Below are positions 16,664 to 57,426 of a DNA stretch of 64,000 nucleotides, in pieces. The translations under genes were made by a program, and so were the position numbers. Below the pieces are notes generated by a model, which was not told where the DNA came from, searched no databases, and worked only from the letters and a program-made list of their open reading frames with translations. Origin of the DNA: Nitrospirota bacterium (GTDB lineage Bacteria; Nitrospirota; Thermodesulfovibrionia; Thermodesulfovibrionales; Dissulfurispiraceae). The stretch spans positions 928,001 to 992,000 of the forward strand of contig CAWBMP010000004.1 of NCBI GenBank assembly GCA_963790025.1, written 5' to 3'. Every line of letters starts with the position of its first letter. Within the stretch, counting starts at the first letter, position 1.

Positions 16664-16667
16664 GATT

Positions 16668-20826: not shown

Positions 20827-21618
20827 ATGAGGTCAGGTGTTGCTTTTATAGTTTTGTTGGGGCTTGCAATAGTGACTGCTATGCTGGTCATTCTTGGAGG
20901 AGGTAAAAATATGTCTATGCGACATAATTATACTGAAGCAGGCATTGGTCTGCCACCATCAGACCGTCTTATTTCAGGCAAATCCGAAACAGCTACCTTT
21001 GCCCTAGGCTGATTCTGGGGGCCGGACTCCCAGTTTGGGAGCTTGCCAGGAGTTATCCGGACCAGGGTGGGATACGCCGGTGGCACTACGAAGAATCCAA
21101 GTTATCACGATCTTGGAGATCACTCTGAGTCAATCCAGGTTGATTTTGACCCCTCTCGCATCTCGTATAGGGAATTGTTGGATATTTTCTGGAAGAGTCA
21201 CGATCCGACAAGAAATTCATGGTCCCGCCAGTATAGGGCGGCAATATTCTATCACAACGAAGAACAAAGGCTTGCTGCAATGGAAACTAGAGGTCACTTT
21301 GCTTCTGAAACCAAAGGAAAAGTTGCTACTGCCATAGAACCGTATTCAGGATTCAATATTGCCGAAGATTATCACCAAAAGCATAGTTTAAGATTGTATC
21401 CCGAAATAATTAAGGAGTTCACGGCGCGATTTCCTGACGTAAAGAGTCTGATCAATTCAACGGCTGTGACACGTGTCAACGGTTACATCGGCGGATACGG
21501 CTCGTGCGAGTCTCTAAAAAAAGAGATAGAGGAGTTCGGACTTTCACACAGCGCGACGGACCTATTGACCTCTGTAGTTTGCGGTCGCAAAACACCAATT
21601 GTTTGTCCGGTTCGCTAA
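20827..21618 (+). CDS. msrA: Peptide-methionine (S)-S-oxide reductase, selenocysteine-containing (UGA at 21010-21012)
   Basis: ATFALG-UGA-FWGPDSQFGSLPGVIRTRVGYAGG: UGA sits at the catalytic Cys of GCFWG; AEDYHQK downstream; the two track ORFs are in one frame; alternative start ATG 20911 has GGAGGT RBS. Confidence 0.88.
21013..21051 (+). promoter_or_regulatory. Putative bacterial SECIS hairpin
   Basis: Upper stem CTCCCA-GTT-TGGGAG with loop G about 21 nt after UGA, lower pairing TTCTGG/CCAGGA. Confidence 0.65.
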
Positions 21619-34870: not shown

Positions 34871-35188
34871 ATGAAAATGATACGAGCATTTATACGGCCT
34901 GAAAAAGAGCAAGAGGTAGTTCTGGCACTTGAGGGGTCGGGTTTCCCGTCGCTGTCCAAGATGCCGGTCTTCGGAAGGGGGAAACAGAAAGGCCTCACAG
35001 TTGGCCCCGTGCATTACGACGAACTTCCCAAAACACTTCTCATGATGGTTGTCGAAGACCAGGATGTGGCCAAAGTAATAGGCATAATCAATGACAAGGC
35101 ACGGACAGGGTTCATAGGGGATGGAAAGATATTCACAAGCCCCGTAGACGGTGCTTACACTGTAAGAACAGGGGAGGCTGTATTATGA
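34871..35188 (+). CDS. nifI1: Nitrogenase-regulatory PII protein NifI1
   Basis: MIRAFIRPEK, V.GRGKQKG, YDELPK, GDGKIF; short T-loop. Confidence 0.85.
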   Translation: MKMIRAFIRPEKEQEVVLALEGSGFPSLSKMPVFGRGKQKGLTVGPVHYDELPKTLLMMVVEDQDVAKVIGIINDKARTGFIGDGKIFTSPVDGAYTVRTGEAVL

Positions 35189-35604
35189 AGGAGATTACCG
35201 CAATCATCAGGAGAGACAAGCTCCCTGAGACAAAGAAGGTCCTTGACGAGCTGGGATACCCCTCTGTCAGTATTCAGAGCATTGACGGAAGAGGGAAACA
35301 AAGGGGAGCAGTATGCGATAACGACCTCGATCCCGAACTGCCGGACAAATATTGCATGTCGGTAAAATTAAAACCAACACCTTCGACATACGCAATAGAG
35401 CATACACTGCCCAAAGTTGCTCTTTTCGTGCCGAAAAGAATGCTGACAATGATTGTACCCGATGATGTAGTAAGCAAGATCGTGAAATCGCTCATCAGGG
35501 TCAACCAGACAGGCAAGACAGGAGACGGCAAGATATTTGTCTCACCAATAGAAAACGCCTTACGGGTGAGGACAGGCGAAAAAGACGGAGAGGCAATAGC
35601 GTAA
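35185..35604 (+). CDS. nifI2: Nitrogenase-regulatory PII protein NifI2
   Basis: MKEITAIIR, GRGKQRG, long T-loop, FVPKRML, NQTG..GDGKIFV. Confidence 0.85.
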   Translation: MKEITAIIRRDKLPETKKVLDELGYPSVSIQSIDGRGKQRGAVCDNDLDPELPDKYCMSVKLKPTPSTYAIEHTLPKVALFVPKRMLTMIVPDDVVSKIVKSLIRVNQTGKTGDGKIFVSPIENALRVRTGEKDGEAIA

Positions 35605-39732: not shown

Positions 39733-40463
39733 TGGGTCTCGCGATAAAACTCAAGAAAAAGCTCAACGGCTTCAGCCTCGATGTCGAATGGGAGATAGGC
39801 AATGAGCTTGCTGTTCTTTTCGGCTATTCCGGTGCAGGGAAGTCGATAACTCTGCAGATGATTGCAGGGCTCATGACTGCCGACGAGGGATCGATTCGCA
39901 TAGATTCTGCAACAATATTTGACAGCCTGTCCAGGGTCAATGTGCCTGCTCAGCATCGTCATTTGGGTTATGTATTTCAAGACCTGGCGCTTTTTCCGCA
40001 TATGACAGTGTCCGAAAATATTGAATATGGTGCCAATGGCATGGCGAAAGGTGAAAAGCCGGGCAAGATAAAGCAGATGGTCGACATCTTTCATCTTCAG
40101 GGACTTGAACACAAATACCCTTCGGAGATATCGGGAGGACAGAAGCAGAGGGTCGCCTTTGCGCGTGCCCTCATTCGCAAACCGCCTCTGCTCCTGCTTG
40201 ATGAACCGTTTTCCGCGCTCGACAATCCTCTCCGGATCGAGATGCGGCAATTTCTGAACGATGTGAGAAAAACGTTCAATGTCCCTGTTGTCCTTGTCAC
40301 ACACGATACTGTTGAAGCCCACTCCATGGCGGACACCATCATTGTCTACGTAAACGGCAAGGTCGCCCAATCGGGACCTCCCTCCGAGGTATTCAACAAT
40401 CCCGTAAACGAAGAAGTTCAAGCGCTGGTGGACACCGGGCGTTACGGCTTTATAGCGTCGTGA
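39732..40463 (+). CDS. modC: Molybdate ABC transporter ATPase (no C-terminal TOBE)
   Basis: GYSGAGKS, FQDLALFPHM, SGGQKQR, LLLDEPF. Confidence 0.9.
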   Translation: MGLAIKLKKKLNGFSLDVEWEIGNELAVLFGYSGAGKSITLQMIAGLMTADEGSIRIDSATIFDSLSRVNVPAQHRHLGYVFQDLALFPHMTVSENIEYGANGMAKGEKPGKIKQMVDIFHLQGLEHKYPSEISGGQKQRVAFARALIRKPPLLLLDEPFSALDNPLRIEMRQFLNDVRKTFNVPVVLVTHDTVEAHSMADTIIVYVNGKVAQSGPPSEVFNNPVNEEVQALVDTGRYGFIAS

Positions 40464-40527
40464 GTTATCGGGTTATTTGTCTTTTGCGCTGTTATGCACA
40501 AAGCTAAGCCCAAATGATGGAGTAAAA

Positions 40528-40989
40528 ATGATAATAGAACCTATTGGCGTAATTCATTCGCCATACGAAGAAAAAAACGAATGTCCCATCCAACCCCTAT
40601 ACGCGCCTGATGCAATAGGCTTTGTCGAGGTATTTGAAAAATACTGTGCAGGATTAAAAGATGTAGAGACCTTTTCTCATATATATCTGCTCTATCATTT
40701 TGACAGGGCTGGAGAAATAAAACTAATAAGGCCACCTTTCCTGGATGATGAATCCCACGGATTATTTGCGACGAGGCACCCGTGCAGACCAAATGGGATT
40801 GGAATGTCCATAGTAAAATTAAAGAAGATAGAAAATAATGTTCTGATAGTGGAAGGCATTGATGTGTTAAACATGACCCCATTGCTCGACATAAAGCCAT
40901 ACATACCGCGTTTCGATCACATCGAAACAGCGAATGAAGGGTGGACGGCCAACAAACAATGGAGGCCAAAGCCAAAGGGAAGAGAGTAA
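40528..40989 (+). CDS. tsaA: TsaA/TrmO-family SAM-binding protein (short form)
   Basis: PIGVIHSP, FSHIYLLYHF, GLFATRHPCRPNGIG, TPLLDIKPY; GGAG RBS before ATG 40528. Confidence 0.85.
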   Translation: MIIEPIGVIHSPYEEKNECPIQPLYAPDAIGFVEVFEKYCAGLKDVETFSHIYLLYHFDRAGEIKLIRPPFLDDESHGLFATRHPCRPNGIGMSIVKLKKIENNVLIVEGIDVLNMTPLLDIKPYIPRFDHIETANEGWTANKQWRPKPKGRE

Positions 40990-41045
40990 AGAAGTACTAA
41001 CAACACCCACTCATTCTTCTACCCCATTTTTGTAGCATTATGCCT

Positions 41046-41136
41046 ACAAAGTTGTAGCGACTCACAATTTTGTCATAGCACTTCCATTGAGGTTAATTTA
41101 CAAATCAAACAGTTACAGGTTGGCACGGTTTTGGCT
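41046..41136 (+). promoter_or_regulatory. sigma54 promoter with IHF site and two ACA-N4-TGT boxes
   Basis: TGGCACGGTTTTGGCT 41121-41136; AATCAAACAGTTA 41103-41115; ACAAAGTTGT 41046, ACAATTTTGT 41064. Confidence 0.85.
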
Positions 41137-41158
41137 ATTCTTTTGACGAGGTGATGAG

Positions 41159-41371
41159 ATGAGCGCTATGTCTACATTAAAAGAAAAAGTGAAGGAAATG
41201 GAAAGAGAGGCCATTGTCGATGCCCTCGTGGAGTGCAGCTGGATAATGGCCAAGGCAGCCCGGAAACTGGGCATTACTGAAAGGATGATCGGGTACAAGA
41301 TCAAAAAATATGGAATAAAGAGAGGTGAGGAAAGACAGGAAAGCAGCAAAGACATTCATGTGATGCAGTAA
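41159..41371 (+). CDS. Stand-alone Fis-type HTH resembling the NifA C-terminal DNA-binding domain
   Basis: EREAIVDAL...WIMAKAARKLGITERMIGYKIKKYGI; GAGGTG RBS. Confidence 0.82.
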   Translation: MSAMSTLKEKVKEMEREAIVDALVECSWIMAKAARKLGITERMIGYKIKKYGIKRGEERQESSKDIHVMQ

Positions 41372-41418
41372 ATAGAAGAACAGGCTTGAGCCTGTAAAAC
41401 ATCACCAGGGAGGATACA

Positions 41419-42342
41419 GTGAAAAGAATCAGCAATTTTACCAGTGCTATTATCGTTTTAGCTTTAATCGCTTCAGTATCAGCCGGCGAAGTGTATGCAG
41501 AAGATCAAAAGCCTGCAACCGAGGTGCCGGCGGCAACTGCTCCGGCTGCAGCGCCTGCGGCAGCGGCGGCCCCTGCTCCACCGGCGGTCACCGGCAGCGC
41601 TTCACTCGCTGTTCTTAACCACTATATGTTCCGCGGCTATGAACTCAACAACGGCAGCGTCGTCATCCAGCCGACCGCTACTATCAATTACTCGGGCTTC
41701 TCGGCAACGTTCTGGAGCAACATCGATTCAAGAGAGAAAGCAACACAGTCTTTTACACCTGACAGACCGGGCAAGACAAGCTACAATGAAACCGATTTGA
41801 CCCTGAACTATACATACAATATCGACAAGCTTGCCCTTACCGGCGGCTATACCTATTATGGGATCAAGTATAACAACAATGCGGAGACACAGGAACTCTA
41901 CCTGAGCGCTGCGTATGACATGATTGCCCACCCGACTCTGGCGGTCTACAGGGACATCGACAATTTCCCCGGCACCTATTTAAACCTCTCTTTCTCGCAA
42001 TCGCTCCCTGTGTTTAAGATGGCCAGTGGCGACGCCACAGTCGATCTGGGTGCGGGGTTCGGATACGAGGCAGGGGACAGCAATGTCTGGAAGACATATG
42101 TTGCCAACAGAGGCTATGTCGGCAGCAACTACAGCGCGTTTCATGACGGCCATGTGCAGGTCGGCTTTACAGCACCTTTGACATCCAAGTTCTCTGTACA
42201 GCCCATTGTACAATACTGGTTCCCGCTTTCGGGTGACGCAAGCAAGACGATAACGGACAGGACCGGAGTTCACGACTTTAACCCTGATGGCCATCTTGCC
42301 GATAAATTTGTCTATGGCCTTAACCTGAATTTTAACTTTTAA
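41419..42342 (+). CDS. Exported outer-membrane beta-barrel, TorF/TIGR02001-like putative porin
   Basis: Signal peptide, YMFRG..., QP, ETDL.L.Y, amphipathic strands, C-terminal Phe. Confidence 0.7.
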   Translation: MKRISNFTSAIIVLALIASVSAGEVYAEDQKPATEVPAATAPAAAPAAAAAPAPPAVTGSASLAVLNHYMFRGYELNNGSVVIQPTATINYSGFSATFWSNIDSREKATQSFTPDRPGKTSYNETDLTLNYTYNIDKLALTGGYTYYGIKYNNNAETQELYLSAAYDMIAHPTLAVYRDIDNFPGTYLNLSFSQSLPVFKMASGDATVDLGAGFGYEAGDSNVWKTYVANRGYVGSNYSAFHDGHVQVGFTAPLTSKFSVQPIVQYWFPLSGDASKTITDRTGVHDFNPDGHLADKFVYGLNLNFNF

Positions 42343-42365
42343 ATAGCAAGAAAAGGAGTATCACT

Positions 42366-44276
42366 ATGGCAAACGAACAAAAAACAGCTCCTCCCGCCAC
42401 AAGGGGAACATTAGGCCTCACAGGCCTTACAATGAACGCAATGGCCCTGATTGCTCCCGGAGCGTTCCTGTGGTTGACTTTTCAGATGCAAGCTCTTTAC
42501 GGCGCCCCGATGGCCGGCATTTCCATGTGGGCCGGCATTCTCTTCGCACTGCTGCTTTGCTTCGCTACTGCAATCAGCTACTCGGAATTGGCGAAGCTGT
42601 TTCCTGGTCCCGGTTCTTCGTACCTGTATGCGGAGCAGGCATACCTCTCGAAAACACATGCATACAAGTTCGCCCGTGTAGCGAAGTTCATCACAGGATG
42701 GGCTAGCCACCTTTATTACTGGGTATATCCGGGAGTCATGGTCGGAGTCACAGCGATCCTGGGCGGATGGCTGGCGAACCAGTTCTGGCCGGACACCTTC
42801 AGCGGCACCTATAACAGCCCCCTGTTCATGTGGATTTTCTGCATCGTGTTTGCTCTCGGAGTTGCATACATTGCTTATCGGGGCGTGACAGGCACGACTG
42901 CAGTCAATGTGGTGATTAATATAATCCAGATTTCTGCGCTCCTCGTTTTCTCGGTTATCGCCATAGGCTACCGCGTCCAGCATCCGCAAGGTTCGACCGG
43001 GTACCATCTGTCCAGCGGAATTGCCGTAAACTATCAGGTAGCCCAGGTGGTACAGAAGGACGATAAGGGCAATCCGGTTCCTATGCTCGATCCAGCCGGC
43101 AAGCCGACCGTAGACAAGGACGGCAACCCCGTATTTAACATGGTGGACGCGGCCGATGAGAAGACAGGTACGCCTGTGATGGCCGACAAGGACGGCAAGC
43201 CTGTAACCGATCCCAAGCTGGCCGCTCCGTTCACCATCGACTATACGGATGGAGCTATGACCAAGGACGATAAAGGCAACCCGGTGTTCAACTACCACAA
43301 AGACGCCACATCCGTTATCGCCCCGCATGGGTTCAACTTTGTCTTTATTCAGGCGGCCATTGCGATTTTGATCCTGGTAGGCTTCGAGTCAGTGACTGCT
43401 ATGGGCGAGGAGGCAAAACGTCCGAAGAAAGACATTCCCCGGGCAGTGCTCCTTTCGCTGGCGATCCAAGGCGCATTCTGTTATCTGATCGAGTATTTCG
43501 GCGCCAACTACCTACTGCACAACGGCTACACCCTGGCCAATGCAGGCGCTTCCGGCGCACCAATCGGCGATATGATGGTCATCGTCGGCACCTGGCTGTT
43601 CGGCAGTTACACGGCAGGCAAGGCGTTCATGCTGGTCCAGGCATTCACGGTGTTCCTGGCCCTGATTGGCACAACGTTGTCCTGTCTCAGTACCGGCGCA
43701 CGTGTCACCTATGCAATGGGCCGCGATGAGGAAGTGCCGTCGCATTTCGGGCTTTTGCACGGCAAACATATGTCGCCCCACAAGGCGATATGGACACTGG
43801 CCTATCTTTCCATTATCATCGGCATCATAACTGTAACGCTGTACATGGGCGGCCAGGCGACTGATCCCGCGGCCTTGGACAAGCACAACTTCTGGTACAG
43901 CATAGGGATCTTTTCACCTCATACATACGTTACGATGCCCAATACGCTGCTTATCGTGACACTGGTCAGCAATTTCGGGACATTCCTGCTTTACATGATC
44001 ACGTGCTGGATAGCGATGGTGGCCTTCAAAGAGCACCACAGCTTCAGCGGGATCAAGCACGTAGTCATACCCGTTCTCGGATTGCTGGCAAACCTTGCGA
44101 TTATGATCTTCTACCTGGTCGGACCGTTTACTGTCGCAGGCATGAGCTGGAAGGAACCGTATATAGCGCTGGGTTTCTGCGCGGTCTGGGGAATATACGG
44201 AGCTATCTATTTCGCGAAAAGCAGCAAGGCCAAAGGCAAGGAAGTGCTTCTCACCAGCAAACCTGCGGCCTCGTAA
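42366..44276 (+). CDS. APC-family amino acid/amine permease with periplasmic repeat insertion
   Basis: IAPGAF, YSELAK.FP..GSSY.Y, LVGFES....GEEAK.P..DIPRA, ARVTYAMGRD. Confidence 0.85.
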   Translation: MANEQKTAPPATRGTLGLTGLTMNAMALIAPGAFLWLTFQMQALYGAPMAGISMWAGILFALLLCFATAISYSELAKLFPGPGSSYLYAEQAYLSKTHAYKFARVAKFITGWASHLYYWVYPGVMVGVTAILGGWLANQFWPDTFSGTYNSPLFMWIFCIVFALGVAYIAYRGVTGTTAVNVVINIIQISALLVFSVIAIGYRVQHPQGSTGYHLSSGIAVNYQVAQVVQKDDKGNPVPMLDPAGKPTVDKDGNPVFNMVDAADEKTGTPVMADKDGKPVTDPKLAAPFTIDYTDGAMTKDDKGNPVFNYHKDATSVIAPHGFNFVFIQAAIAILILVGFESVTAMGEEAKRPKKDIPRAVLLSLAIQGAFCYLIEYFGANYLLHNGYTLANAGASGAPIGDMMVIVGTWLFGSYTAGKAFMLVQAFTVFLALIGTTLSCLSTGARVTYAMGRDEEVPSHFGLLHGKHMSPHKAIWTLAYLSIIIGIITVTLYMGGQATDPAALDKHNFWYSIGIFSPHTYVTMPNTLLIVTLVSNFGTFLLYMITCWIAMVAFKEHHSFSGIKHVVIPVLGLLANLAIMIFYLVGPFTVAGMSWKEPYIALGFCAVWGIYGAIYFAKSSKAKGKEVLLTSKPAAS

Positions 44277-44308
44277 TTAATGTCGAACTCTCCCAAAAGG
44301 AGCACGTC

Positions 44309-44343
44309 AGGGCGGTCACCTGTTAGGGTGGCCGTCCTTTTTT
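44309..44343 (+). terminator. Rho-independent terminator after APC permease
   Basis: agggcggtcacct-gtt-agggtggccgtcct followed by T run. Confidence 0.75.
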
Positions 44344-44392
44344 GCACCATACTCTTTCAATATCTTAAAATAAATGGTAAAGTGCTTTAACT

Positions 44393-46192
44393 ATGGAACT
44401 GACCTACTATGAACTATCTTCACCCGGACCTGCCCGCGATAACAACGAGGATTTCGTGGGTTTCTGGCAGCCGGAAACCCTGGAAGAGAAGCGGGACCGC
44501 GGTGCGGTCGCAGTACTGGCCGACGGCGTCGGCGGGTTGCACCGTGGAGAAGTGGCCAGCCGACTGGCCGTGGAGACCGCGCTAAAAACGTTTCACGAGG
44601 CCCCGGAGGGAAAAACTCCGCAGCAATTGCTCACGCAGATGTTCAACGAGGCCAATCTTGCCGTATACGATAAAGGCATGGAAGACCACGGCAAGTCCCG
44701 GATGGCGACAACCCTGGCCATCGTCGTGCTTCGCAACGACGAAATCGTAGTTGGCAATGTGGGAGATTCGCGAGTCTATTTGGTCCATAAGGCCGAGATC
44801 AGGCAATTGTCCACAGACCATACCTACGTCGGCATGCAGCAAAAGTTCGGATTGATCTCGGAGCAGGACGCCAAGACCAGTGAAAACCGTTCCGTCCTGA
44901 CCCGCAGCGTCGGGAACGAGCCGGTGATCCGTCTTGACGTGGAGAGCACTACAGTGTTCAAGGGCGACCACGTCGTGCTTTGTTCCGACGGCTTGTATGC
45001 GCATGTCACAGACAGCGAGATCGCCGACATCGTGTCCAGGCTTTCTCCGGCCCAGGCTTGCCGTCAGCTCATCTCCTTGGCCGAGCAGCGCGGGACCGAC
45101 GACAATCTGTCCGTGCAGGTTCTGCAAATTAACGATGTCGAGAAAATGTCGTATTATCGTGGCGTTCCTCTGTATCAGGAGCCGGCAGAGACTACGATTT
45201 CTTATGAGCTCCAGCCGGGGAAGACCCTTGACAACCGTTTCTTCATCACAGAGACCATCACCCGCAGTGGTATGGCTACCATATTCAAGGCGACAGACCT
45301 CACAACCAAGGAAACAGTGGCTGTGAAGGTGCCTTTCATGGAGTTCGAGAGCGATCCAGGCTTTTATTCACGTTTTCAACGCGAAGAAGAGATAGGGCGC
45401 CTGTTGGACCATCCCTATATCCTGAAATTCATCCCTGTGGAGGAACAGCGCAGCCGTCCATACATCGTTACCGAATATCTTCGTGGCTATACGCTCTCGC
45501 ACCTGCTCAACAGCGTCCGTCCGATGCCCGAGAAAGACGCCGTAAAACTGGCCGGCGACATTTGCGAAGCATTGGCTTATATGCACGAGCACGGTGTAAT
45601 TCACCGGGACCTCAAGCCTCAGAACATCATGATCTGTTACGACGGTACGATCCGGATCATGGACTTCGGCATCGCCAAGGCTGCTGAGGGCAGAAGAATC
45701 ACATTTACCGGTTTCACACCGGCGGTCGGCACCCCCGATTACATGGCCCCCGAGCAGGTCAAGGGAAAGCGCGGGGACGAGCGTACCGACATTTACAGCC
45801 TCGGCGCAATGCTCTACGAAATGGTGGTCGGCATGACGCCGTTCGATAGCGAGAATGAAAACCCGTTCGTGATCATGAACGCCCGAGTCACCGGCGACCC
45901 CGTGGCCCCCCGAAAACGCAATCCAAAAATCATGCCTCAAGTCGAGGAGATCATACTTCACGCCATGGAGCGCGATCCCGGGAAGCGTTATCAAACAGCC
46001 GCCGCAATGAAAGCGGATTTGGACAATCCTGAAGCGGTGCATTTGACCGGACGATGCGACCGGCTTCAGACACCGACTCCCTGGAAGCGCGGATGGAAAA
46101 AAGCATTGTGGATTGCGCTGGGCATATCGGGCGCGCTCGCTATCCTGCTCCTGCTGGTCCTACTGATCATCCACCGCGGCACCGCACACTAA
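44393..46192 (+). CDS. Bifunctional PP2C phosphatase / Hanks Ser-Thr kinase with C-terminal TM anchor
   Basis: RDNNED, ADGVGG, NVGDSR, LCSDGL, DDNLS; AVK, HRDLKPQN, DFG, GTPDYMAPEQ. Confidence 0.92.
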   Translation: MELTYYELSSPGPARDNNEDFVGFWQPETLEEKRDRGAVAVLADGVGGLHRGEVASRLAVETALKTFHEAPEGKTPQQLLTQMFNEANLAVYDKGMEDHGKSRMATTLAIVVLRNDEIVVGNVGDSRVYLVHKAEIRQLSTDHTYVGMQQKFGLISEQDAKTSENRSVLTRSVGNEPVIRLDVESTTVFKGDHVVLCSDGLYAHVTDSEIADIVSRLSPAQACRQLISLAEQRGTDDNLSVQVLQINDVEKMSYYRGVPLYQEPAETTISYELQPGKTLDNRFFITETITRSGMATIFKATDLTTKETVAVKVPFMEFESDPGFYSRFQREEEIGRLLDHPYILKFIPVEEQRSRPYIVTEYLRGYTLSHLLNSVRPMPEKDAVKLAGDICEALAYMHEHGVIHRDLKPQNIMICYDGTIRIMDFGIAKAAEGRRITFTGFTPAVGTPDYMAPEQVKGKRGDERTDIYSLGAMLYEMVVGMTPFDSENENPFVIMNARVTGDPVAPRKRNPKIMPQVEEIILHAMERDPGKRYQTAAAMKADLDNPEAVHLTGRCDRLQTPTPWKRGWKKALWIALGISGALAILLLLVLLIIHRGTAH

Positions 46193-46271
46193 GAACATAC
46201 AATGTGCTGCGTTCAGCTTTATAGCGCCAAGGCCAGTACGCTGGACTCTTTACGCAGAACGCGCTTAACCT

Positions 46272-46362
46272 ACAATGTTGTAGTGTCATACAATTTTGTC
46301 GTAAGACTCCCAGAAAAGTCCATTTAAAAATCAAGCAGTTGCCGGCTGGCATGGTTTTGGCT
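46272..46362 (+). promoter_or_regulatory. sigma54 promoter with IHF site and two ACA-N4-TGT boxes
   Basis: TGGCATGGTTTTGGCT 46347-46362; AATCAAGCAGTTG 46329-46341; ACAATGTTGT 46272, ACAATTTTGT 46290. Confidence 0.85.
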
Positions 46363-46418
46363 ATTATTCAGCGAAGTGCCCAGTATTCATAAATAGAGGG
46401 AACACTGGAGGATTGCAG

Positions 46419-46742
46419 ATGACTTTTATGGCCTGGTTTATTTTCATTTGTGCGGCAATTCTGGAGGTCGGCGGTGATGCGGTTGTTCGCAGAGGACTGC
46501 GCGGGAACAATCTAATGATAATTATGACTGGATTCGTCGTACTCGGTTCTTATGGCGTAGTTGTAAATATGGTTAAATGGGATTTTTCAAAACTACTCGG
46601 TGTATATGTCGCAGTCTTTGCGCTGATAAGCATTTTATTCGGTAAGTTCGTCTTTCAAGAAAACATACCGAATTCGACGTGGATCGGATTGGCAGTTATT
46701 ATTTGCGGCGGGATGATAATCCAATTTGGGAATAAAATATAA
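46419..46742 (+). CDS. Small 4-TM DMT/SMR-like (YnfA-like) membrane protein
   Basis: AAILEVGGD in TM1, G.YVAVF, four hydrophobic helices; GGAGG RBS before ATG 46419. Confidence 0.7.
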   Translation: MTFMAWFIFICAAILEVGGDAVVRRGLRGNNLMIIMTGFVVLGSYGVVVNMVKWDFSKLLGVYVAVFALISILFGKFVFQENIPNSTWIGLAVIICGGMIIQFGNKI

Positions 46743-46780
46743 AAACCAGGTGTAGGCATAGACATAGAATGGAGGCTGAA

Positions 46781-48415
46781 ATGAAGAAGGTATTGATGTT
46801 CTTATTATTAATAGTATTGTTGAGCGGGCTCACAATGCCGGTGGTGCGGGCATATGCGGATGAACAGTCGCACCCTGGAGCTGCTGCTCCTCCTGCAGCG
46901 GCACCGTGCCCGGCGACTGAACTTCCTAAGCCTGATCCGTCCGGCGCCAATACAGGCGGAGCCGCCGATGTTGTGGGAGCCTCAGCCAATGCCCCTACTG
47001 CTGAAGAAATGAAAAAACTGGCTACCAATGAGCCGCTTGCTATGAAACTGGCGGATGTCGTAGGCCATAACAGAATCGCAATTAATTTTGTATGGACGTT
47101 GATCTGCGGCTATCTTGTCTTTTTCATGCAGACGGGCTTTGCCATGGTGGAGACCGGTTTTACGAGGGCAAAGAATGCAGCTCATACCATGGCGATGAAC
47201 ATGATGGTGTTTGTTTTCGGGGTGCTCGGTTACTGGATTTGCGGCTATGCTTTTCAGATGGGTGGCGTAGGCCCCGGGCCTCTGAGCGGCGGAACGGCAT
47301 TGTTGACTAATGAATACACCCTGAATCTTTTCGGAAAGGACTTCGGCATCTTCGGCACAACGGGATTTTTCCTTTCAGGCGTGAGCTATGATGCCTCGAT
47401 CGTCACGCTCTTTCTGTTCCAGGTGGTCTTCATGGATACCGCGGCTACAATACCTACCGGAGCTATGGCTGAACGCTGGACGTTTAAATCATTCATGGTT
47501 TTCGGGTTCTTTATCGCTATGTTCACATACCCTATTTATGCAAATTGGGTATGGGGCGGCGGGTGGCTGTCACAACTCGGCAAGAACTTCGGGCTTGGCC
47601 ATGGGGTCCTCGATTTCGCGGGCTCATCAGTAGTGCATATGGTCGGCGGCGTTTCGGCGCTGGCAGGAGCGATAGCCCTTGGCCCCCGCATCGGAAAATT
47701 CAGGCCTGATGGAACTCCCAATGCAATACCGGGACACCACATTCCCATGGCTATAATCGGGTGCTTAATACTTTTCTTCGGTTGGTTCGGATTCAATCCC
47801 GGCTCGACCCTGGCCGGCGGTGATTTGAGGATCGGGATAATAGCTGTAAATACCATGCTCGCATCCTGCGCAGGCTCCTTCTCGGCAATGGCGTACATGT
47901 GGATCTTTTATGGCAAGCCGGACCTTTCCCTGTCAGCTAACGGACTCCTTGCAGGACTTGTTGCCATAACAGCGCCGTGCGCATTCGTAAGTACGGTTGG
48001 AGCAGTGATTATAGGGCTTATTGCAGGCGTGCTTTGCTGCATGAGCATCTTCTTTGTTGAAAGGACACTAAAAGTTGACGACCCTGTGGGCGCAATATCC
48101 GTTCACGGCACATGCGGGGCCTGGGGCCTTATCGGGCTCGGACTTTTCGCTGACGGGACATACGGCGACGGCCTGAACAACGTCGCCGGTACCGTAAAAG
48201 GACTTTTTTATGGCGGCTCTTCACAATTCGTGGCTGAGGTCATTGGTGTTTGCGTTAATTTCATCTTTGTTTTTGTGGTAATGTTCGTATTCTTCAAGGT
48301 GCTTGATAAAATAATTCCCCTGCGGGTATCGCCTGAAATAGAGATCGAAGGACTCGACTTGAACGAAGTCAATGTTACCGCATATCCAAACTTCAACCTT
48401 AAGACCCACAGGTAG
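46781..48415 (+). CDS. amt: Ammonium transporter 1 with long N-terminal extension
   Basis: FMQTGFAMVE, GAMAER, DFAGSSVVH, GWFGFN, DDPVGAISVH. Confidence 0.95.
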   Translation: MKKVLMFLLLIVLLSGLTMPVVRAYADEQSHPGAAAPPAAAPCPATELPKPDPSGANTGGAADVVGASANAPTAEEMKKLATNEPLAMKLADVVGHNRIAINFVWTLICGYLVFFMQTGFAMVETGFTRAKNAAHTMAMNMMVFVFGVLGYWICGYAFQMGGVGPGPLSGGTALLTNEYTLNLFGKDFGIFGTTGFFLSGVSYDASIVTLFLFQVVFMDTAATIPTGAMAERWTFKSFMVFGFFIAMFTYPIYANWVWGGGWLSQLGKNFGLGHGVLDFAGSSVVHMVGGVSALAGAIALGPRIGKFRPDGTPNAIPGHHIPMAIIGCLILFFGWFGFNPGSTLAGGDLRIGIIAVNTMLASCAGSFSAMAYMWIFYGKPDLSLSANGLLAGLVAITAPCAFVSTVGAVIIGLIAGVLCCMSIFFVERTLKVDDPVGAISVHGTCGAWGLIGLGLFADGTYGDGLNNVAGTVKGLFYGGSSQFVAEVIGVCVNFIFVFVVMFVFFKVLDKIIPLRVSPEIEIEGLDLNEVNVTAYPNFNLKTHR

Positions 48416-48427
48416 CGTTGTGCATAA

Positions 48428-48465
48428 GGCGTTCAGCGTACTGGCTTTTTTGACGCTGAACGCCG
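48428..48465 (+). terminator. Hairpin after amt1
   Basis: ggcgttcagcgt ... acgctgaacgcc. Confidence 0.6.
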
Positions 48466-48521
48466 TGCGCTTTGCATTTTATCTTCCAAACTCTTTTATC
48501 ACTTTTGGTATAATTAACTGA

Positions 48522-48767
48522 ATGACTCCAAAACTAAAAAACCAGAGAAAATTTTCCCCTATTGCGAGAGCGGCAGTTGAGACGTGTTTTATAATATTTC
48601 TCTTTTATTCCAATCTTCTGATGGGAGAATTTACTAATACAAACGGACATGGAAAGAGCTTGCTCTTTGCTGTTCAGGATATTTTTACAGCTGCTAATTT
48701 TGCAGTTGCCGTTATCACTGCCCTGATTGGTTATGGAGTTTTTGAATATCTTCGAAAGAAACTTTAA
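48522..48767 (+). CDS. Small 2-TM hypothetical membrane protein
   Basis: 81-aa ORF with two hydrophobic helices, IIFLFYSNLLMGEF. Confidence 0.6.
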   Translation: MTPKLKNQRKFSPIARAAVETCFIIFLFYSNLLMGEFTNTNGHGKSLLFAVQDIFTAANFAVAVITALIGYGVFEYLRKKL

Positions 48768-48790
48768 TGACCCGTAGTTTCTTTGAATGA

Positions 48791-49249
48791 TTACAAATTA
48801 CCAATTCTTCTCTCCGATAAAATTTCTCTTTGCCTCACAAAAATATACCTTTCAATATGAGACTCGGTTTCTTTCTCTAAATCTACAAACATTACACTTA
48901 TCTTGTGGTCCTGGGAATTCTCGATCCGCTCGACCCTGAGGACCCTGGCATTTACCGTAACGGGCTCAAAAAGAGGATATGTCCTCCTGAAATGTAAAGT
49001 TATCTCTATATGAGTATTGACATGATAATGCCGCCGGGATAAAAACTGGAGGCCGTTTGCACTGATGTCAACCGTATAGTGCTCGCCAAGCACTCCGGTT
49101 TTTTCCGTCGTTATATCACCTGTGAGATTGTCCTCTTCAGACTCCTTTATTGCCTTGACTTTGATTCGCAGGCGTTCGTGTAGTCTAAAAAACTGACGCT
49201 TGTTACTAACTTTTCCTCCATGTTTGTTATCGTTGGGTTCCGCAACCAT
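48791..49249 (-). CDS. PilZ-domain protein
   Basis: RQFFR (RxxxR) and DISANG (D/NxSxxG) c-di-GMP motifs. Confidence 0.85.
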   Translation of the reverse strand: MVAEPNDNKHGGKVSNKRQFFRLHERLRIKVKAIKESEEDNLTGDITTEKTGVLGEHYTVDISANGLQFLSRRHYHVNTHIEITLHFRRTYPLFEPVTVNARVLRVERIENSQDHKISVMFVDLEKETESHIERYIFVRQREILSERRIGNL

Positions 49250-49404
49250 ATGCGATTACTCTATAATATTTGTCATAAAAAAGTTAAGAAGTTTTTGCAG
49301 CTATGAATTCTTAATGAACCAACTCTTAGTTTACCCAGGCAATATGTAACAATGGTTAAAAAGCAAAATACTCAGTAAATCAAGGATAGCTGAGATAAAT
49401 CCAG

Positions 49405-49509
49405 ACAATTTTGTTAATACAAAATTGTCATAATAACAAAATTGTAGCACCGTAAAATCTAGTCTCTCTAATAAAATCAAATGGTTATATGCCTGGCACA
49501 GTTTTAGCT
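49405..49509 (+). promoter_or_regulatory. sigma54 promoter of glnA copy 1 with IHF site and three ACA-N4-TGT boxes
   Basis: TGGCACAGTTTTAGCT 49494-49509; AATCAAATGGTTA 49475-49487; boxes at 49405, 49419, 49436. Confidence 0.82.
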
Positions 49510-49578
49510 CTCATATTTGATACGTGAGTAATGCGATAAAGACAGGCATACGCTTGCACTAAAAATAAAGGAGGGAAT

Positions 49579-50991
49579 ATGACACCAAAAGATGTACTGA
49601 AGATGGCGCAGGAAAACAAGGCTGTAATGGCAAACTTCAAGTTTCTTGATTATCCCGGGATATGGCAGCACTTTGGAGCACCAATCTCGGAATTAACGGA
49701 GGATGTATTTGAGAGCGGACTGGGTTTTGACGGCTCCTCGATAAGGGGCTGGCAGGCTATACATACGTCTGATATGCTGATAATTCCGGACCCATCCACG
49801 GCCTTTATCGACCCCTTCATGGAATACCCGACCATAAGCCTCATCTGCAATATCATGGACCCGATCACCAAAGAGTTTTATACAAGAGACCCCCGCTATA
49901 TTGCTCAAAAGGCGGAGGCCTATTTGAAATCTACCGGGATTGGTGATACGGCGTATTTCGGTCCTGAGGCAGAGTTCTTTATTTTTGACGACATCATGTT
50001 CGACCAGAACTCACACAGCGGCTATTATTTCATCGATTCAGTTGAAGGTATCTGGAATTCGGGCCGTGATGAAAAGCCGAACCTCGGCTATAAGCCAAGG
50101 CATAAAGAAGGCTATTTCCCTGTTCCTCCAACCGACAGTCTCGTCAACCTGAGAACAGAGATGGTCATGGAAATGCTGAAATGCGGCATCTATGTGGAAA
50201 AAGAACACCATGAAGTGGCCACTGCGGGGCAGGCCGAGATAGATATGAGATTTGAGTCCCTGCTCAAGATGGCGGACAATCTCATGCTCTTCAAATACAT
50301 AATCAAGAATGTCGCAAAGAGGCATAACAAGACAGTTACATTCATGCCGAAGCCCCTTTTCGGCGACAACGGTTCGGGGATGCATACACACCAGAGCATA
50401 TGGAAAAACGGAAAGCCTGTTTTTGCAGGCAATGGCTATGCAGGCCTTAGCGAAACAGCACTCTACTACATCGGCGGCATACTGAAGCACGCAAAATCCC
50501 TGGCAGCCATTACCAATCCAACAACCAATTCATACAAAAGATTGACCCCGGGCTTTGAAGCGCCGGTGAACCTTGCCTACTCTGCAAGAAACCGTTCGGC
50601 TGGAGTCAGGATACCAACTTACTCTCCAAGCCCGAAAGCAAAGAGGGCAGAAGTAAGGTTCCCTGACCCCTCATGTAATGGCTATCTTGCCTTTGCAGCC
50701 ATGCTGATGGCAGGACTTGACGGCATCGAAAATAAGATACATCCGGGCGAGCCGCTCGATAAAGATATTTACGAACTCGGCCCCGAAGAGCTTGCATCGG
50801 TGCCGACCATGCCTGGAAGCCTCGAGGAGGCCCTCGGCAACCTTGAAGAAGACCACGATTACCTGAGGAAAGGCGATGTCTTTACCGAAGACGCACTGGA
50901 AACGTGGATAAGCTACAAGAGGTCAAAAGAAGTGGATGCCCTACGACTGAGGCCGCACCCTTATGAGTTTTTCCTGTATTACGATATTTAA
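49579..50991 (+). CDS. glnA: Glutamine synthetase type I, copy 1
   Basis: [38 protein letters not shown], adenylylation-site DIYEL. Confidence 0.98.
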
Positions 50992-51011
50992 GATACTCTT
51001 TACATAATGAC

Positions 51012-51046
51012 AAAAAAAGGGGGACCCTGTAGAGTCCCCTTTTTTT
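51012..51046 (+). terminator. Bidirectional terminator after glnA1
   Basis: aaaaaaagggggac-cctgtaga-gtccccttttttt. Confidence 0.8.
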
Positions 51047-51098
51047 ACTTTTGTATTATTCCAGACCGCAATATAGCCGTTTCTTCAAAAACGTACAA

Positions 51099-51202
51099 AC
51101 AATAATGTAGCGACAATTTTGTTATATATACAAAATTGTACCATCGTGAAAAGGCAACATTCTCATAAAATCAATATGTTATACATTGGCATGGTTCTGG
51201 CA
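51099..51202 (+). promoter_or_regulatory. sigma54 promoter of amt2-glnK with IHF site and three ACA-N4-TGT boxes
   Basis: TGGCATGGTTCTGGCA 51187-51202; AATCAATATGTTA 51169-51181; boxes at 51099, 51113, 51130. Confidence 0.82.
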
Positions 51203-51269
51203 ACAAAAAAGTAGCTTGGCTGTTGCAGTCCGGGCATTCTCATGCACATTTTATGGTTTGGAGGAAGTA

Positions 51270-52628
51270 ATGAAAACAATGAAGGGCATTACATTTGTTG
51301 TCGTAGTAATAATGGCTCTGCTTTCTTTCTCGGCAGTCTTGCTCTATGCTGAAGATCAGAAACCGGCCGGCGCTCAGGCACCAGCTGCGCAACAGGCGCC
51401 GGCACCGGCACCGAAGATTGATACAGGGGACACTGCCTGGATGATCGTGGCTACGGCATTAGTTATGCTTATGACGATACCGGGCCTGGCCTTGTTCTAT
51501 GGCGGCATGGCGAAAGGTAAAAACGTACTGAATACTCTGGCAATGTCTTTTGCCACATTCGCCATCGTCAGCGTTCTCTGGGTAATTTATGGTTATACTT
51601 TTGCGTTCGGCACCGATGTAGGAGGCTTTATCGGCAGAGCCGAGAAACTGTTACTCTCGGGAGTAGGCGTAAATAGTATCAGCGACCTGGCAAAGACAAT
51701 ACCCGAGTTTATATTCATCGCATACCAGCTGACCTTTGCGGCGATCACGGTTGCGCTGGCGAGCGGCTCATATGTGGAAAGGATGAAGTTCTCGGCCTGG
51801 GTGCTGTTCTCAATACTCTGGTTAACCATTACCTATCTGCCGATAGCCCATTGGGTATGGGGCAACGGCTTTCTCATGAAGATGGGAGCCCTCGATTTTG
51901 CGGGTGGCACTGTCGTTCATATCAATGCCGGTGTCGCTGGACTCGTAGGTGCGATAATGCTTGGAAAAAGGAAGGACCCCACCTATAAACCAAACAACCT
52001 TCCTTTTGTAGTCATTGGCGCAGGACTCTTGTGGTTCGGCTGGTTCGGATTCAACGCCGGGTCTGCTCTTGCAGCCAACGGCCTTGCAGGGGCCGCCTTT
52101 CTTAATACAAATACAGCCACCGCGATGGCGACAGTGGCGTGGATGGTAACTGAATGGATACATGGCGGGAAGCCTACCGTCCTGGGTCTGGCTTCAGGGG
52201 CCGTCGCAGGACTTGTCACGATCACACCCGCTGCCGGTTTCGTAAATATTACCGGGGCCATAGTAATTGGGACAGCGGCGGGGATAATTCCCTTTTTCTG
52301 TGTTGCGAAACTCAAACCCTTGCTCGGCTACGACGACGCCCTCGACGCCTTCGGTGTTCACGCAATAGGCGGTACGATTGGAGCGCTTCTTACCGGTATA
52401 TTTGCCGATCCTGCCATCAATGACGCGGGCAAGGGTCTTCTTTATGGAAATCCGGGTCAGTTACTCATACAGCTTAAAGCTGTGGGAGTAACAATAGCGT
52501 ATACCGCGATAACAACCGCAATCATTTTTATGATAATCAAGGCAGTGACTGGTATCAGGGTCGATGCTGAGGAAGAGATGACAGGGCTCGACGAAAGTGC
52601 ACACGGCGAAAGGGCATATAACCTGTAA
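51270..52628 (+). CDS. amtB: Ammonium transporter 2 (AmtB type)
   Basis: GDTAW, PGLALFYGG, DFAGGTVVH, WFGWFGFN, DDALDAFGVH; GGAGG RBS before ATG 51270. Confidence 0.96.
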   Translation: MKTMKGITFVVVVIMALLSFSAVLLYAEDQKPAGAQAPAAQQAPAPAPKIDTGDTAWMIVATALVMLMTIPGLALFYGGMAKGKNVLNTLAMSFATFAIVSVLWVIYGYTFAFGTDVGGFIGRAEKLLLSGVGVNSISDLAKTIPEFIFIAYQLTFAAITVALASGSYVERMKFSAWVLFSILWLTITYLPIAHWVWGNGFLMKMGALDFAGGTVVHINAGVAGLVGAIMLGKRKDPTYKPNNLPFVVIGAGLLWFGWFGFNAGSALAANGLAGAAFLNTNTATAMATVAWMVTEWIHGGKPTVLGLASGAVAGLVTITPAAGFVNITGAIVIGTAAGIIPFFCVAKLKPLLGYDDALDAFGVHAIGGTIGALLTGIFADPAINDAGKGLLYGNPGQLLIQLKAVGVTIAYTAITTAIIFMIIKAVTGIRVDAEEEMTGLDESAHGERAYNL

Positions 52629-52707: not shown

Positions 52708-53049
<342 letters not shown>

Positions 53050-55851: not shown

Positions 55852-55956
55852 AAGAGTAAATGGGTAAATGGGCGAATGGGTATATGAGTTAAAGACATCA
55901 TATACTCATGCACTCATATACTCATCAAATCATTTACTAAAAATAAAGGAGGGAAT

Positions 55957-57369
55957 ATGACACCAAAAGATGTACTGAAGATGGCGCAGGAAAACAAGGC
56001 TGTAATGGCAAACTTCAAGTTTCTTGATTATCCCGGGATATGGCAGCACTTTGGAGCACCAATCTCGGAATTAACGGAGGATGTATTTGAGAGCGGACTG
56101 GGTTTTGACGGCTCCTCGATAAGGGGCTGGCAGGCTATACATACGTCTGATATGCTGATAATTCCGGACCCATCCACGGCCTTTATCGACCCCTTCATGG
56201 AATACCCGACCATAAGCCTCATCTGCAATATCATGGACCCGATCACCAAAGAGTTTTATACAAGAGACCCCCGCTATATTGCTCAAAAGGCGGAGGCCTA
56301 TTTGAAATCTACCGGGATTGGTGATACGGCGTATTTCGGTCCTGAGGCAGAGTTCTTTATTTTTGACGACATCATGTTCGACCAGAACTCACACAGCGGC
56401 TATTATTTCATCGATTCAGTTGAAGGTATCTGGAATTCGGGCCGTGATGAAAAGCCGAACCTCGGCTATAAGCCAAGGCATAAAGAAGGCTATTTCCCTG
56501 TTCCTCCAACCGACAGTCTCGTCAACCTGAGAACAGAGATGGTCATGGAAATGCTGAAATGCGGCATCTATGTGGAAAAAGAACACCATGAAGTGGCCAC
56601 TGCGGGGCAGGCCGAGATAGATATGAGATTTGAGTCCCTGCTCAAGATGGCGGACAATCTCATGCTCTTCAAATACATAATCAAGAATGTCGCAAAGAGG
56701 CATAACAAGACAGTTACATTCATGCCGAAGCCCCTTTTCGGCGACAACGGTTCGGGGATGCATACACACCAGAGCATATGGAAAAACGGAAAGCCTGTTT
56801 TTGCAGGCAATGGCTATGCAGGCCTTAGCGAAACAGCACTCTACTACATCGGCGGCATACTGAAGCACGCAAAATCCCTGGCAGCCATTACCAATCCAAC
56901 AACCAATTCATACAAAAGATTGACCCCGGGCTTTGAAGCGCCGGTGAACCTTGCCTACTCTGCAAGAAACCGTTCGGCTGGAGTCAGGATACCAACTTAC
57001 TCTCCAAGCCCGAAAGCAAAGAGGGCAGAAGTAAGGTTCCCTGACCCCTCATGTAATGGCTATCTTGCCTTTGCAGCCATGCTGATGGCAGGACTTGACG
57101 GCATCGAAAATAAGATACATCCGGGCGAGCCGCTCGATAAAGATATTTACGAACTCGGCCCCGAAGAGCTTGCATCGGTGCCGACCATGCCTGGAAGCCT
57201 CGAGGAGGCCCTCGGCAACCTCGAAGAAGACCACGATTACCTGAGGAAAGGCGATGTCTTTACCGAAGACGCACTGGAAACGTGGATAAGCTACAAGAGG
57301 TCAAAAGAAGTGGATGCCCTACGACTGAGGCCGCACCCTTATGAGTTTTTCCTGTATTACGATATTTAA
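55957..57369 (+). CDS. glnA: Glutamine synthetase type I, copy 2 (protein identical to copy 1)
   Basis: Identical 470-aa translation in ORF track. Confidence 0.97.
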
Positions 57370-57389
57370 GATACTCTTTACATAATGAC

Positions 57390-57426
57390 AAAAAAAGGGG
57401 GACTCTACAGAGCCCCCCTTTTTTTT
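57390..57426. terminator. Bidirectional terminator after glnA2
   Basis: aaaaaaagggggactctacagagcccccctttttttt. Confidence 0.8.

Follow-up and report, generated by a model that had tools for sequence, protein, structure and literature searches.

We analysed a 64,000-nucleotide stretch of a 3.45-Mb Nitrospirota genome (C4:928001-992000), hereafter the window, in which a sequence-only reading had proposed a nitrogen-scavenging module of seven co-oriented genes between modABC and glnA. The names carried by near-identical proteins assign the genome to the Dissulfurispiraceae (Thermodesulfovibrionales). Open reading frames (ORFs) and domain matches supported all seven genes, which lie on the + strand. 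The first encodes a stand-alone Fis-type helix-turn-helix (HTH) protein of the HTH_8 family (41159-41371; 70 aa; PF02954, 43 bits), and is followed by the gene of an outer-membrane beta-barrel with a signal peptide and an Ala/Pro-rich linker (41419-42342; 307 aa), assigned from an AlphaFold2 (AF2) model and Foldseek. Next come an APC-superfamily permease (42366-44276; 636 aa) and a fusion of a PP2C phosphatase with a Hanks-type Ser/Thr kinase, which ends in a C-terminal transmembrane (TM) segment (44393-46192; 599 aa; Pfam and NCBIfam). The last three genes encode a YnfA/UPF0060-like 4-TM protein (46413-46742; 109 aa), the Amt-family protein Amt1, with a signal peptide and an Ala/Pro-rich N-extension (46769-48415; 548 aa), and a 2-TM protein without a family match, called from its ORF and a TM scan (48522-48767; 81 aa).

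In the PP2C-kinase fusion, the phosphatase occupies approximately residues 9-246 and the kinase residues 276-545. The membrane anchor that had been read from the sequence was also found: a single TM segment at residues 574-592 of 599, with about 7 residues beyond it. Since this is the only hydrophobic segment of the protein, both enzyme domains are predicted to be cytoplasmic and tail-anchored, with no sensor domain. Both domains belong clearly to their families (PF00069, 175 bits against a cut-off of 31.7; PF13672 and PF00481, 70.5 bits against 24). Moreover, in an alignment of 10 sequences, K312, E331, the HRDLKPQN motif (H404-R405-D406), D424-F425-G426 and A452-P453-E454 of the kinase are invariant or nearly so, and we take these to be the beta3 Lys, the alphaC Glu, the HRD loop, DFG and APE, respectively. 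D20, D44, D199 and D237 of the phosphatase are invariant in the same sequences, and are presumably its metal-binding Asp residues. At the level of sequence, the catalytic motifs of both enzymes are therefore shown to be intact. The best family models were the Stk1 kinase (297 bits) and the Stp1 PP2C (205 bits), both below the equivalog cut-offs; for the Stk1/PknB PASTA kinases (NF033483) the cut-off is 450 bits, and the match covers the kinase domain only. In a maximum-likelihood analysis of 22 kinase regions, the 16 module kinases formed one clade (97/95), apart from six generic kinases. We also considered whether the fusion could be a PII kinase of the cyanobacterial Ser49 style. This was rejected because GlnD is present in the genome (560 bits against 519) and the T-loops of both PII proteins read RGAEY, with Tyr51 and Ala49.

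Gene neighbourhoods were compared in two samples of loci. The kinase-side sample comprised 80 loci from species genomes, recovered with a profile of the kinase fusion and annotated by tblastn and Pfam, while the permease-side sample comprised 80 metagenome loci carrying a permease of at least 59% identity, 44 of them informative (at least 2500 bp downstream). On the kinase side, the permease was found by tblastn in 13 of the 80 loci, all among the 24 best kinase matches, and in none of the 56 loci with generic kinases; when both the PP2C and the kinase halves were present, an adjoining permease was found in 11 of 13 loci. On the permease side, 41 of the 44 informative loci carried a PP2C and/or a kinase part, which was directly downstream on the same strand in 34 and fused in 29; an Amt gene was present in 28 (of the Amt1 type in 17), glnA in 5 and a YnfA-like gene in 4. 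The kinase-side loci come from Verrucomicrobiota, Planctomycetota, Binatota, Myxococcota, Chloroflexota, Acidobacteriota and Nitrospirota. The order APC-PP2C-kinase, with the enzymes fused or encoded by two adjacent genes, occurs in Limisphaerales and other Verrucomicrobiota, in Binataceae, in Polyangia, in an unclassified deltaproteobacterium and in Chloroflexota, and in Tepidisphaerales in divergent orientation. In other phyla the module has PII, glnA or Amt genes as neighbours, and in Chloroflexota a glutamine synthetase gene lies directly 3' of the kinase gene. Judged by these neighbourhoods, the APC permease, PP2C and a tail-anchored Hanks-type kinase are linked in at least seven phyla, and this triad is the conserved core of the module. 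In these samples, the co-occurrence that the sequence-only reading had proposed to check was seen for the triad, often with an Amt gene. Since the permease and the kinase-phosphatase lie side by side in many unrelated soil bacteria, they probably work together. Note that an apparent APC-PP2C fusion (an 841-aa ORF in locus L049) was discarded as an ORF-calling artefact: its N-terminal part is out-of-frame and rich in Arg, Pro and Gly.

Closer to the window, the order HTH-porin-APC-kinase fusion-ynfA-amt1 was identical in 7/7 loci from genus-mates. In one of them (L021, G002:C5) the permease and kinase genes are separated by an inserted glnA gene (90% identical). In another (L027, G007:C8) the permease and kinase genes match as 3-5 pieces in different frames, and these copies are either pseudogenes or the product of sequencing errors. 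Full-length kinase fusions, 81-85% identical, were present in 7/9 other genomes of the genus, while searches of G008 (74% complete) and G009 (84% complete) gave none. The 31 genomes from other genera of the order gave only single-domain matches of approximately 30-43% identity, so that the kinase gene is limited to one genus among the 41 relatives searched. Moreover, the G+C content of the APC-kinase stretch is 0.54-0.55, compared to 0.42-0.50 in its flanks. The higher G+C, together with the restriction of the kinase to a single genus of the order, makes it likely that this stretch was acquired by horizontal transfer. Several proteins 81-83% identical to the kinase fusion carry the labels of Geobacteraceae or Oryzomonas metagenome-assembled genomes, which points to mis-binning or to very recent transfer.

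The permease is a clear member of the APC superfamily (PF13520, 76 bits; PF00324, 58 bits), with 10 hydrophobic segments in a crude scan, and it reached no subfamily or equivalog cut-off in NCBIfam. Among proteins of solved structure it is closest to GkApcT and CAT1/CAT4 (E ~1e-8), and no K+ transporter was found among them at E up to 1. Identity across phyla is 47-71%, compared to 34-68% for the kinase. A variable periplasmic loop of about 100 residues (approximately residues 205-300) is missing from the copies of Binatota, Chloroflexota and the deltaproteobacterial locus L041. The AF2 model of the permease, built from a 9-row alignment, had a mean pLDDT of 50 and was unusable. As to its substrate, the neighbours gave inconsistent clues: a glutamine synthetase-like gene, a class-V aminotransferase and GlcD/GlcF in Chloroflexota, and urease accessory genes in locus L187. 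We infer a nitrogenous, probably cationic solute.

The sequence-only reading had also predicted two sigma54 promoters, built like those of nifH, glnA and amtB. Promoter P1 (41031-41136, + strand), 5' of the HTH gene, consists of TTGTAG/CTACAA (ACAA-N2-TTGT) repeats at 41031-41075, a site resembling those of the integration host factor (IHF) at 41103-41115, and a sigma54 -24/-12 element, TGGCACGGTTTTGGCT, at 41121-41136. P2 (46270-46362, + strand), 5' of ynfA, is a near-copy of P1, with repeats, an IHF-like site and the -24/-12 element TGGCATGGTTTTGGCT at 46347-46362. The sequence TGGCAYNNTTTTRGCT occurs three times in the window, at 41121, at 46347 and, before glnA, at 49494; 0.08 occurrences were expected, and three were reached in 0/100 shuffles. 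Six sites of this -24/-12 variant are present in the whole genome, every one accompanied by an IHF-like site, and five of them stand before the HTH gene, ynfA, glnA, amtB and the third amt gene. Both promoters are conserved in 7 genus-mates: the -24/-12 element was found in 14/14 of the regions upstream of the HTH gene and ynfA, and the upstream repeats in 13/14. A stricter sigma54 pattern, TGGC-N8-TGC, gave 16 matches, compared to 11 expected, and none in the module region, because the -12 element there reads GGC.

With a GG-N10-GC element, upstream sites, an IHF-like site and conservation all present, P1 and P2 have the sequence features of activator-driven, sigma54-type promoters, and the prediction of two such promoters, at 41121 and 46347, held. 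The comparison with known nitrogen promoters held in part. Alignment of the HTH, ynfA, glnA and amtB promoters showed the ACAA-N2-TTGT/TTGTAG repeats, an IHF-like WATCAANNNNTTR site and the -24/-12 element in common, whereas the nifH promoter has only the IHF-like site and the -24/-12 element in common with those of the module. By its sequence, the architecture of P1 and P2 is that of a nitrogen regulon, as for glnA and amtB of the same genome.

The APC gene is separated from the kinase gene by a hairpin resembling an intrinsic terminator (13 bp, 8 of them G-C) and a T-tract, together at 44309-44345 on the + strand, which the sequence-only reading had not mentioned. A hairpin was present at this position, with other stem sequences, in 6/6 genus-mates examined. 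The HTH-porin-permease transcript is therefore likely to be abundant, with little read-through into the kinase gene, and because this conserved terminator precedes the gene, the kinase is probably made in small amounts via read-through. The kinase gene has no visible Shine-Dalgarno sequence. Another hairpin lies in the 48415-48522 spacer, 5' of the 2-TM gene. The 2-TM protein is kept in 6/7 genus-mate loci, in just 3 of which it adjoins amt1, and it has look-alikes in unnamed clusters of Acidobacteriota. An Rfam search of 40400-51300 gave no match at E up to 0.1.

The HTH protein and the porin also occur outside the module. The HTH protein most resembles the DNA-binding end of NifA (positions 487-530 of TIGR01817), and is 48% identical to the C-terminus of NifA from the same genome, its nearest paralogue there. 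The barrel protein scored below the cut-offs of Gcw_chp (21.5 bits against 24) and TorF (18.4 against 47); its AF2 model is a beta-barrel (pLDDT 70), and the best Foldseek matches are the outer-membrane barrels PcoB, NanC, OmpG and Tsx (prob 1.00). A second HTH-porin pair is located in the same genome directly after kdpA-kdpB-kdpC (L108, G000:C4:570000-589000; C4 up to 590000), with an HTH protein 67% identical and a porin 99% identical to those of the window. The DNA from the 3' half of the HTH gene through the porin gene is nearly identical to window 41290-42342, and the kdpABC operon has a sigma54-like promoter of its own, TGGCACTAAAAATGCT. The porin is present in 26/41 related genomes. Among 30 porin loci fetched, 7 have the order HTH-porin-APC (all from the window's own genus, the window included), 7 follow kdpC, and in 14-15 from relatives the porin adjoins an Amt gene, mostly of the amtB type. 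The HTH-porin pair followed by an amtB-type gene (L198-L214) is the common arrangement in the order, and in most HTH-porin copies outside kdp loci a -24/-12 element precedes the HTH start by 29-48 bp.

These loci indicate that the HTH and porin genes form an order-wide sigma54 cassette which normally heads amtB or follows kdpC. Its frequent association with amtB and kdpC suggests that, across the order, it serves as the front end of systems for small-cation uptake. The block from APC to amt1 lies, in this genus, between the HTH-porin pair and amtB. The HTH protein and the porin, which the sequence-only reading had counted among the parts of the module, are thus used by amtB and kdp too. Its broader interpretation as a scavenging module survived to this extent: co-location and promoters support the module genes as a real functional unit, with the HTH-porin pair as a separate cassette. 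A feedback or architectural role of the HTH protein at the shared upstream sites is possible. Porins of the BBP2 type were also observed in or beside the module in five loci (L121, L130, L150, L171 and L039); in L150 the BBP2-type porin adjoins the permease alone, and in the others it is next to a permease-kinase pair.

The 4-TM protein reaches the YnfA/UPF0060 family (PF02694, 31.4 bits against 24.9) and falls below the NF002586 equivalog (40.9 against 114). A YnfA-like 4-TM gene was also found, together with the gene of a tail-anchored kinase, between kdpC and kdpD in three verrucomicrobial kdp operons (L029, L031 and L035). The gene orders there are KdpB-KdpC-Usp-YnfA-like-kinase, kinase with KdpD after it, and KdpA-KdpB-x-kinase-YnfA-like-KdpD. 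These kinases are 57-59% identical to the kinase half of the window protein; they form a kinase-only clade of three (98/96) that is nested in the fused-kinase clade as sister to the window protein (91/88). Since a YnfA-like gene lies beside each of them, the YnfA-like protein appears to track this kinase subclade and not nitrogen genes. In 3 of 25 loci annotated (L128, L177 and L182), the permease-kinase pair has beside it a KdpD-like sensor kinase (DUF4118-GAF-HisKA; the GAF match is absent in L182) and an OmpR-type regulator, and L128 also carries a Kup K+ transporter.

Amt1 belongs to the Amt/Mep/Rh family (PF00909, 385 bits; TIGR00836, 398 bits against 343), and its twin-His pair, H290 and H446, is invariant in 11 Amts. 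Its closest solved relatives are the receptors Ks-Amt5 (6eu6) and Sd-Amt1 (8qj3/8qpf), ahead of Af-Amt1 and AmtB. The N1/N2 signature of the ammonium receptors is QX6EX15NX2D[F/T]X54-60TX2[S/T], plus an exit-narrowing Asn (PMC11152129). Amt1 has Q121, E128, N144, F148, T227 and T230, that is, 6/7 signature positions, and N391 as the exit Asn. It falls outside the ammonium receptor (AmR) class at the signature Asp (D48 of Sd-Amt1), which is V147 in Amt1. Six kinase-linked relatives match the Amt1 pattern, and Val or Ile replaces the Asp throughout the kinase-linked Amt clade. At the Glu position, both GlnK-linked Amts of the window carry the Tyr typical of transporters. By these residues, Amt1 is of a receptor-like type, unlike those two Amts.

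The genome has five PII genes, and none lies beside amt1, as the sequence-only reading had noted: the nearest are at 34871-35580 and 52711-53049, the latter being the glnK between the other two Amt genes. Amt1 thus lacks the adjoining PII gene of an AmtB-GlnK pair. In the sampled loci, which are biased because they were picked via the kinase or the permease, 18 of the 29 genes of the Amt1 type had a kinase gene, and 5 a PII gene, no more than 400 bp away, compared to 1 and 5, respectively, of the 7 AmtB-type genes.

With these elements, we tentatively propose, at somewhat less than even confidence, that the locus is a scavenging module of two sigma54 operons, induced by nitrogen limitation, in which the enzyme pair serves as a phospho-switch on the transporters. 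The first operon would supply the HTH protein that resembles the DNA-binding domain of NifA, the outer-membrane channel and the APC permease and, past the terminator, the PP2C-kinase; the second would supply the YnfA-like protein, the receptor-like Amt and the 2-TM protein. The C-terminal helix would hold the sensor-less enzyme pair at the inner face of the membrane, where it would act as a reversible phospho-switch on the co-encoded transporters, mainly the permease and probably Amt1. The outcome would be fast post-translational control, like that exerted by GlnK on AmtB, or by Npr1 and CIPK23 on Mep2 and AMT1. Induction by nitrogen limitation, the direction of signalling and the targets of phosphorylation are the parts of this scheme that we infer.

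Several observations weigh against this proposal. The terminator and the absent Shine-Dalgarno sequence make the expression of the kinase gene uncertain, and the kinase relatives in kdp operons, together with the KdpD-like neighbours, suggest that the kinase lineage is not nitrogen-specific. Neither is the triad universal: 2/13 kinase-side loci (L030 and L033) are without a permease and 3/44 permease loci (L127, L150 and L155) without enzymes. As for Amt1, the contrast between kinase and PII neighbours comes from the biased sample mentioned above, and even there 5/29 Amt1-type genes do adjoin a PII gene; with GlnD and classical PII proteins present, Amt1 could be gated in trans by GlnK. Finally, the parallel that had been drawn with plant Amts did not extend to T460 of plant AMT1;1: at the equivalent position the alignment shows Asn for Amt1 and Leu for its relatives.

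Another possibility, which we consider unlikely, is that signalling runs in the opposite direction: the APC permease and/or the receptor-like Amt1 would sense, in the manner of a trigger transporter or transceptor, and report substrate flux or NH4+ occupancy to the kinase via membrane contacts, and the enzyme would then phosphorylate something soluble, for instance glutamine synthetase or a regulatory protein. This would suit a kinase that has neither an extracytoplasmic nor a ligand-binding domain, and whose only extras are a conserved juxtamembrane segment and the TM helix. It would also suit the receptor relatives of Amt1, its six signature positions and exit Asn, and the transporter-type Tyr in the window's other two Amts. 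The glutamine synthetase gene after the kinase gene in Chloroflexota, and the glnA between APC and kinase in G002, likewise speak for it. However, the signature Asp is lost in the whole kinase-linked Amt clade, and no soluble substrate is conserved nearby (an FHA-domain gene was seen in 1/25 loci, L162). Membership of the receptor-like cluster is itself weak evidence for sensing, because about 30% of all Amts fall there, proven plant transporters included (PMC11152129). Control of the transporters by the enzyme pair is favoured over sensing by the transporters because the permease is the one partner that does not vary, and the neighbourhood has no conserved candidate for a soluble target.

We regard as quite unlikely a third scenario, in which the module balances monovalent cations (NH4+ versus K+) rather than scavenging organic nitrogen; the porin would pass small cations, the permease would carry a cationic amine or another cation, and NH4+ and K+ uptake would be coordinated by the kinase lineage. 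The HTH gene and the 99% identical porin after kdpABC speak for it, as do the porin neighbourhoods (kdpC in 7/30, Amt in 14-15/30), the kinase-only and YnfA-like genes inside verrucomicrobial kdp operons, and the KdpD-like proteins, response regulators and Kup among the 25 annotated loci. On the other hand, the solved relatives of the permease are amino-acid transporters, and neighbours related to kdp are in the minority, Amt, PII and glnA genes being found more often. More improbable still is the absence of any direct coupling, with the genes held together by a common nitrogen regulon or a shared transferred segment, and the kinase acting on unrelated targets. The distinct G+C of the APC-kinase stretch is in line with this, and the occurrence of the kinase in one genus among 41 relatives fits the import of a block. 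Nevertheless, the adjacency is kept over at least seven phyla at the identities given above for permease and kinase, it persists whether the two enzymes are fused or split, through inversions and with other genes on the flanks, and the 41/44 and 11/13 loci are far above what hitch-hiking would lead one to expect. A further reading, more speculative than the proposed phospho-switch and in our view doubtful, would make the triad a mobile, cross-phylum unit of transporter and kinase, with the receptor-like Amt and the APC permease as receptors or targets, and the sister kinases doing the same in Kdp operons. If true, such a unit would do in bacteria, independently of PII, what Npr1 and CIPK23 do in eukaryotes in controlling the uptake of NH4+, K+ and amino acids.

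The proposed phospho-switch has parallels in known systems. As with GlnK and AmtB, which the window also encodes in a classical amtB-glnK-amt set, a nitrogen-starvation-induced ammonium channel would be under fast control by a co-encoded cytoplasmic regulator. Unlike that system, amt1 has no adjoining PII gene, its usual neighbour elsewhere is a kinase (18/29) and not PII (5/29), and the control proposed for Amt1 is covalent and not a protein plug. In yeast, Npr1 acts on Mep2 and Gap1, and in plants CIPK23 acts on AMT1, these kinases being opposed by phosphatases according to nitrogen supply. Control of Mep2 by phosphorylation has been described (PMC4852598). The likeness proposed here is that one Ser/Thr kinase would serve both an Amt-family protein and an APC-family permease. 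These kinases are however unrelated beyond the fold, in the module the kinase and phosphatase are one membrane-tethered chain encoded beside the presumed targets, and the residue equivalent to plant T460 is not conserved in Amt1.

In Ks-Amt5 and Sd-Amt1, the Amt and a transducer, either a histidine kinase or a diguanylate cyclase, form one chain. Amt1 carries no such fusion, and any signalling by it would run in trans to a separate kinase. It shares with these receptors six residues of the signature from PMC11152129 (Q, E, N, F, T and T/S) as well as the exit Asn, though not the Asp, which is Val in Amt1. The enzyme pair itself differs from PknB-PstP and Stk1-Stp1 in that the kinase has no PASTA or other sensor domain and its anchor is C-terminal, in that the enzymes are fused in the window and in 29/44 permease-side loci, and in having as partner an APC permease or an Amt in a nitrogen regulon. 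PknB-PstP and Stk1-Stp1 are well-known pairs of Hanks-type kinase and PP2C phosphatase, and PknF with Rv1747 is a known case of a transporter-linked kinase. The module would have in common with PknF-Rv1747 the idea of a kinase encoded next to the transporter that it regulates.

The control of bacterial ammonium uptake is explained by PII/GlnK, while phospho-control of Amts and amino-acid permeases is seen as eukaryotic. In the literature searched, which had subscription journals outside its coverage, we found no description of a bacterial module of APC permease or Amt with PP2C and kinase, nor of the HTH-porin-amtB cassette. The same literature gave nothing relevant on PP2C-kinase fusions beside nitrate-assimilation transporters, to which the sequence-only reading had appealed. 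In those passages of a review of prokaryotic Amts that matched the search, phosphorylation-based signalling appears only as the histidine kinase of Ks-Amt5 (PMC10433425). The families are thus ordinary, and it is their conserved combination and placement in what appears to be a nitrogen regulon that is undescribed in that literature. If the proposal is true, bacteria of soil, peat and sediment, from at least seven phyla, would have a second, covalent control route, and Hanks-type kinases would gain a defined nutritional role. The analysis also points to an APC subfamily that is highly conserved but uncharacterised, to a candidate outer-membrane channel for small cations that serves Amt, Kdp and the module, and to a natural collection of Amts that are receptor-like yet carry no fused transducer.

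The wider context of the module is a nif/gln island, as judged by family scans of its proteins. Its 5' part carries nifHDK, a fused nifEN, nifX, two NifI-like PII genes and nifB, followed by a ThiF-family gene and a TOBE-domain gene (both Pfam calls), and then by modABC and trmO. On the 3' side of the module, a minus-strand PilZ gene precedes glnA, amtB, glnK and the third amt gene, and a GATase gene, glnB, the second glnA and glnE follow. The two glnA genes are near-exact duplicates (49558-51010 and 55936-57390), with a 1286-nt identical block and one mismatch over approximately 1.45 kb; one copy lies behind the sigma54 promoter and the other behind glnB. This is either a recent duplication or an assembly artefact. 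Elsewhere in the window, a PAS-GGDEF-EAL gene (18851-20642, minus strand) is apparently split, as one ORF ends at position 82 of the EAL profile and the next begins at position 105. The MsrA ORF at 21043-21618, which has a 'selenoprotein MsrA helical domain', begins at profile position 19, and an in-frame TGA (selenocysteine) may lie upstream of its called start. Finally, the 720-aa cysteinyl-tRNA synthetase encoded at 16641-18803 has an N-terminal hexapeptide-transferase domain and may be a CysE-like/CysS fusion.

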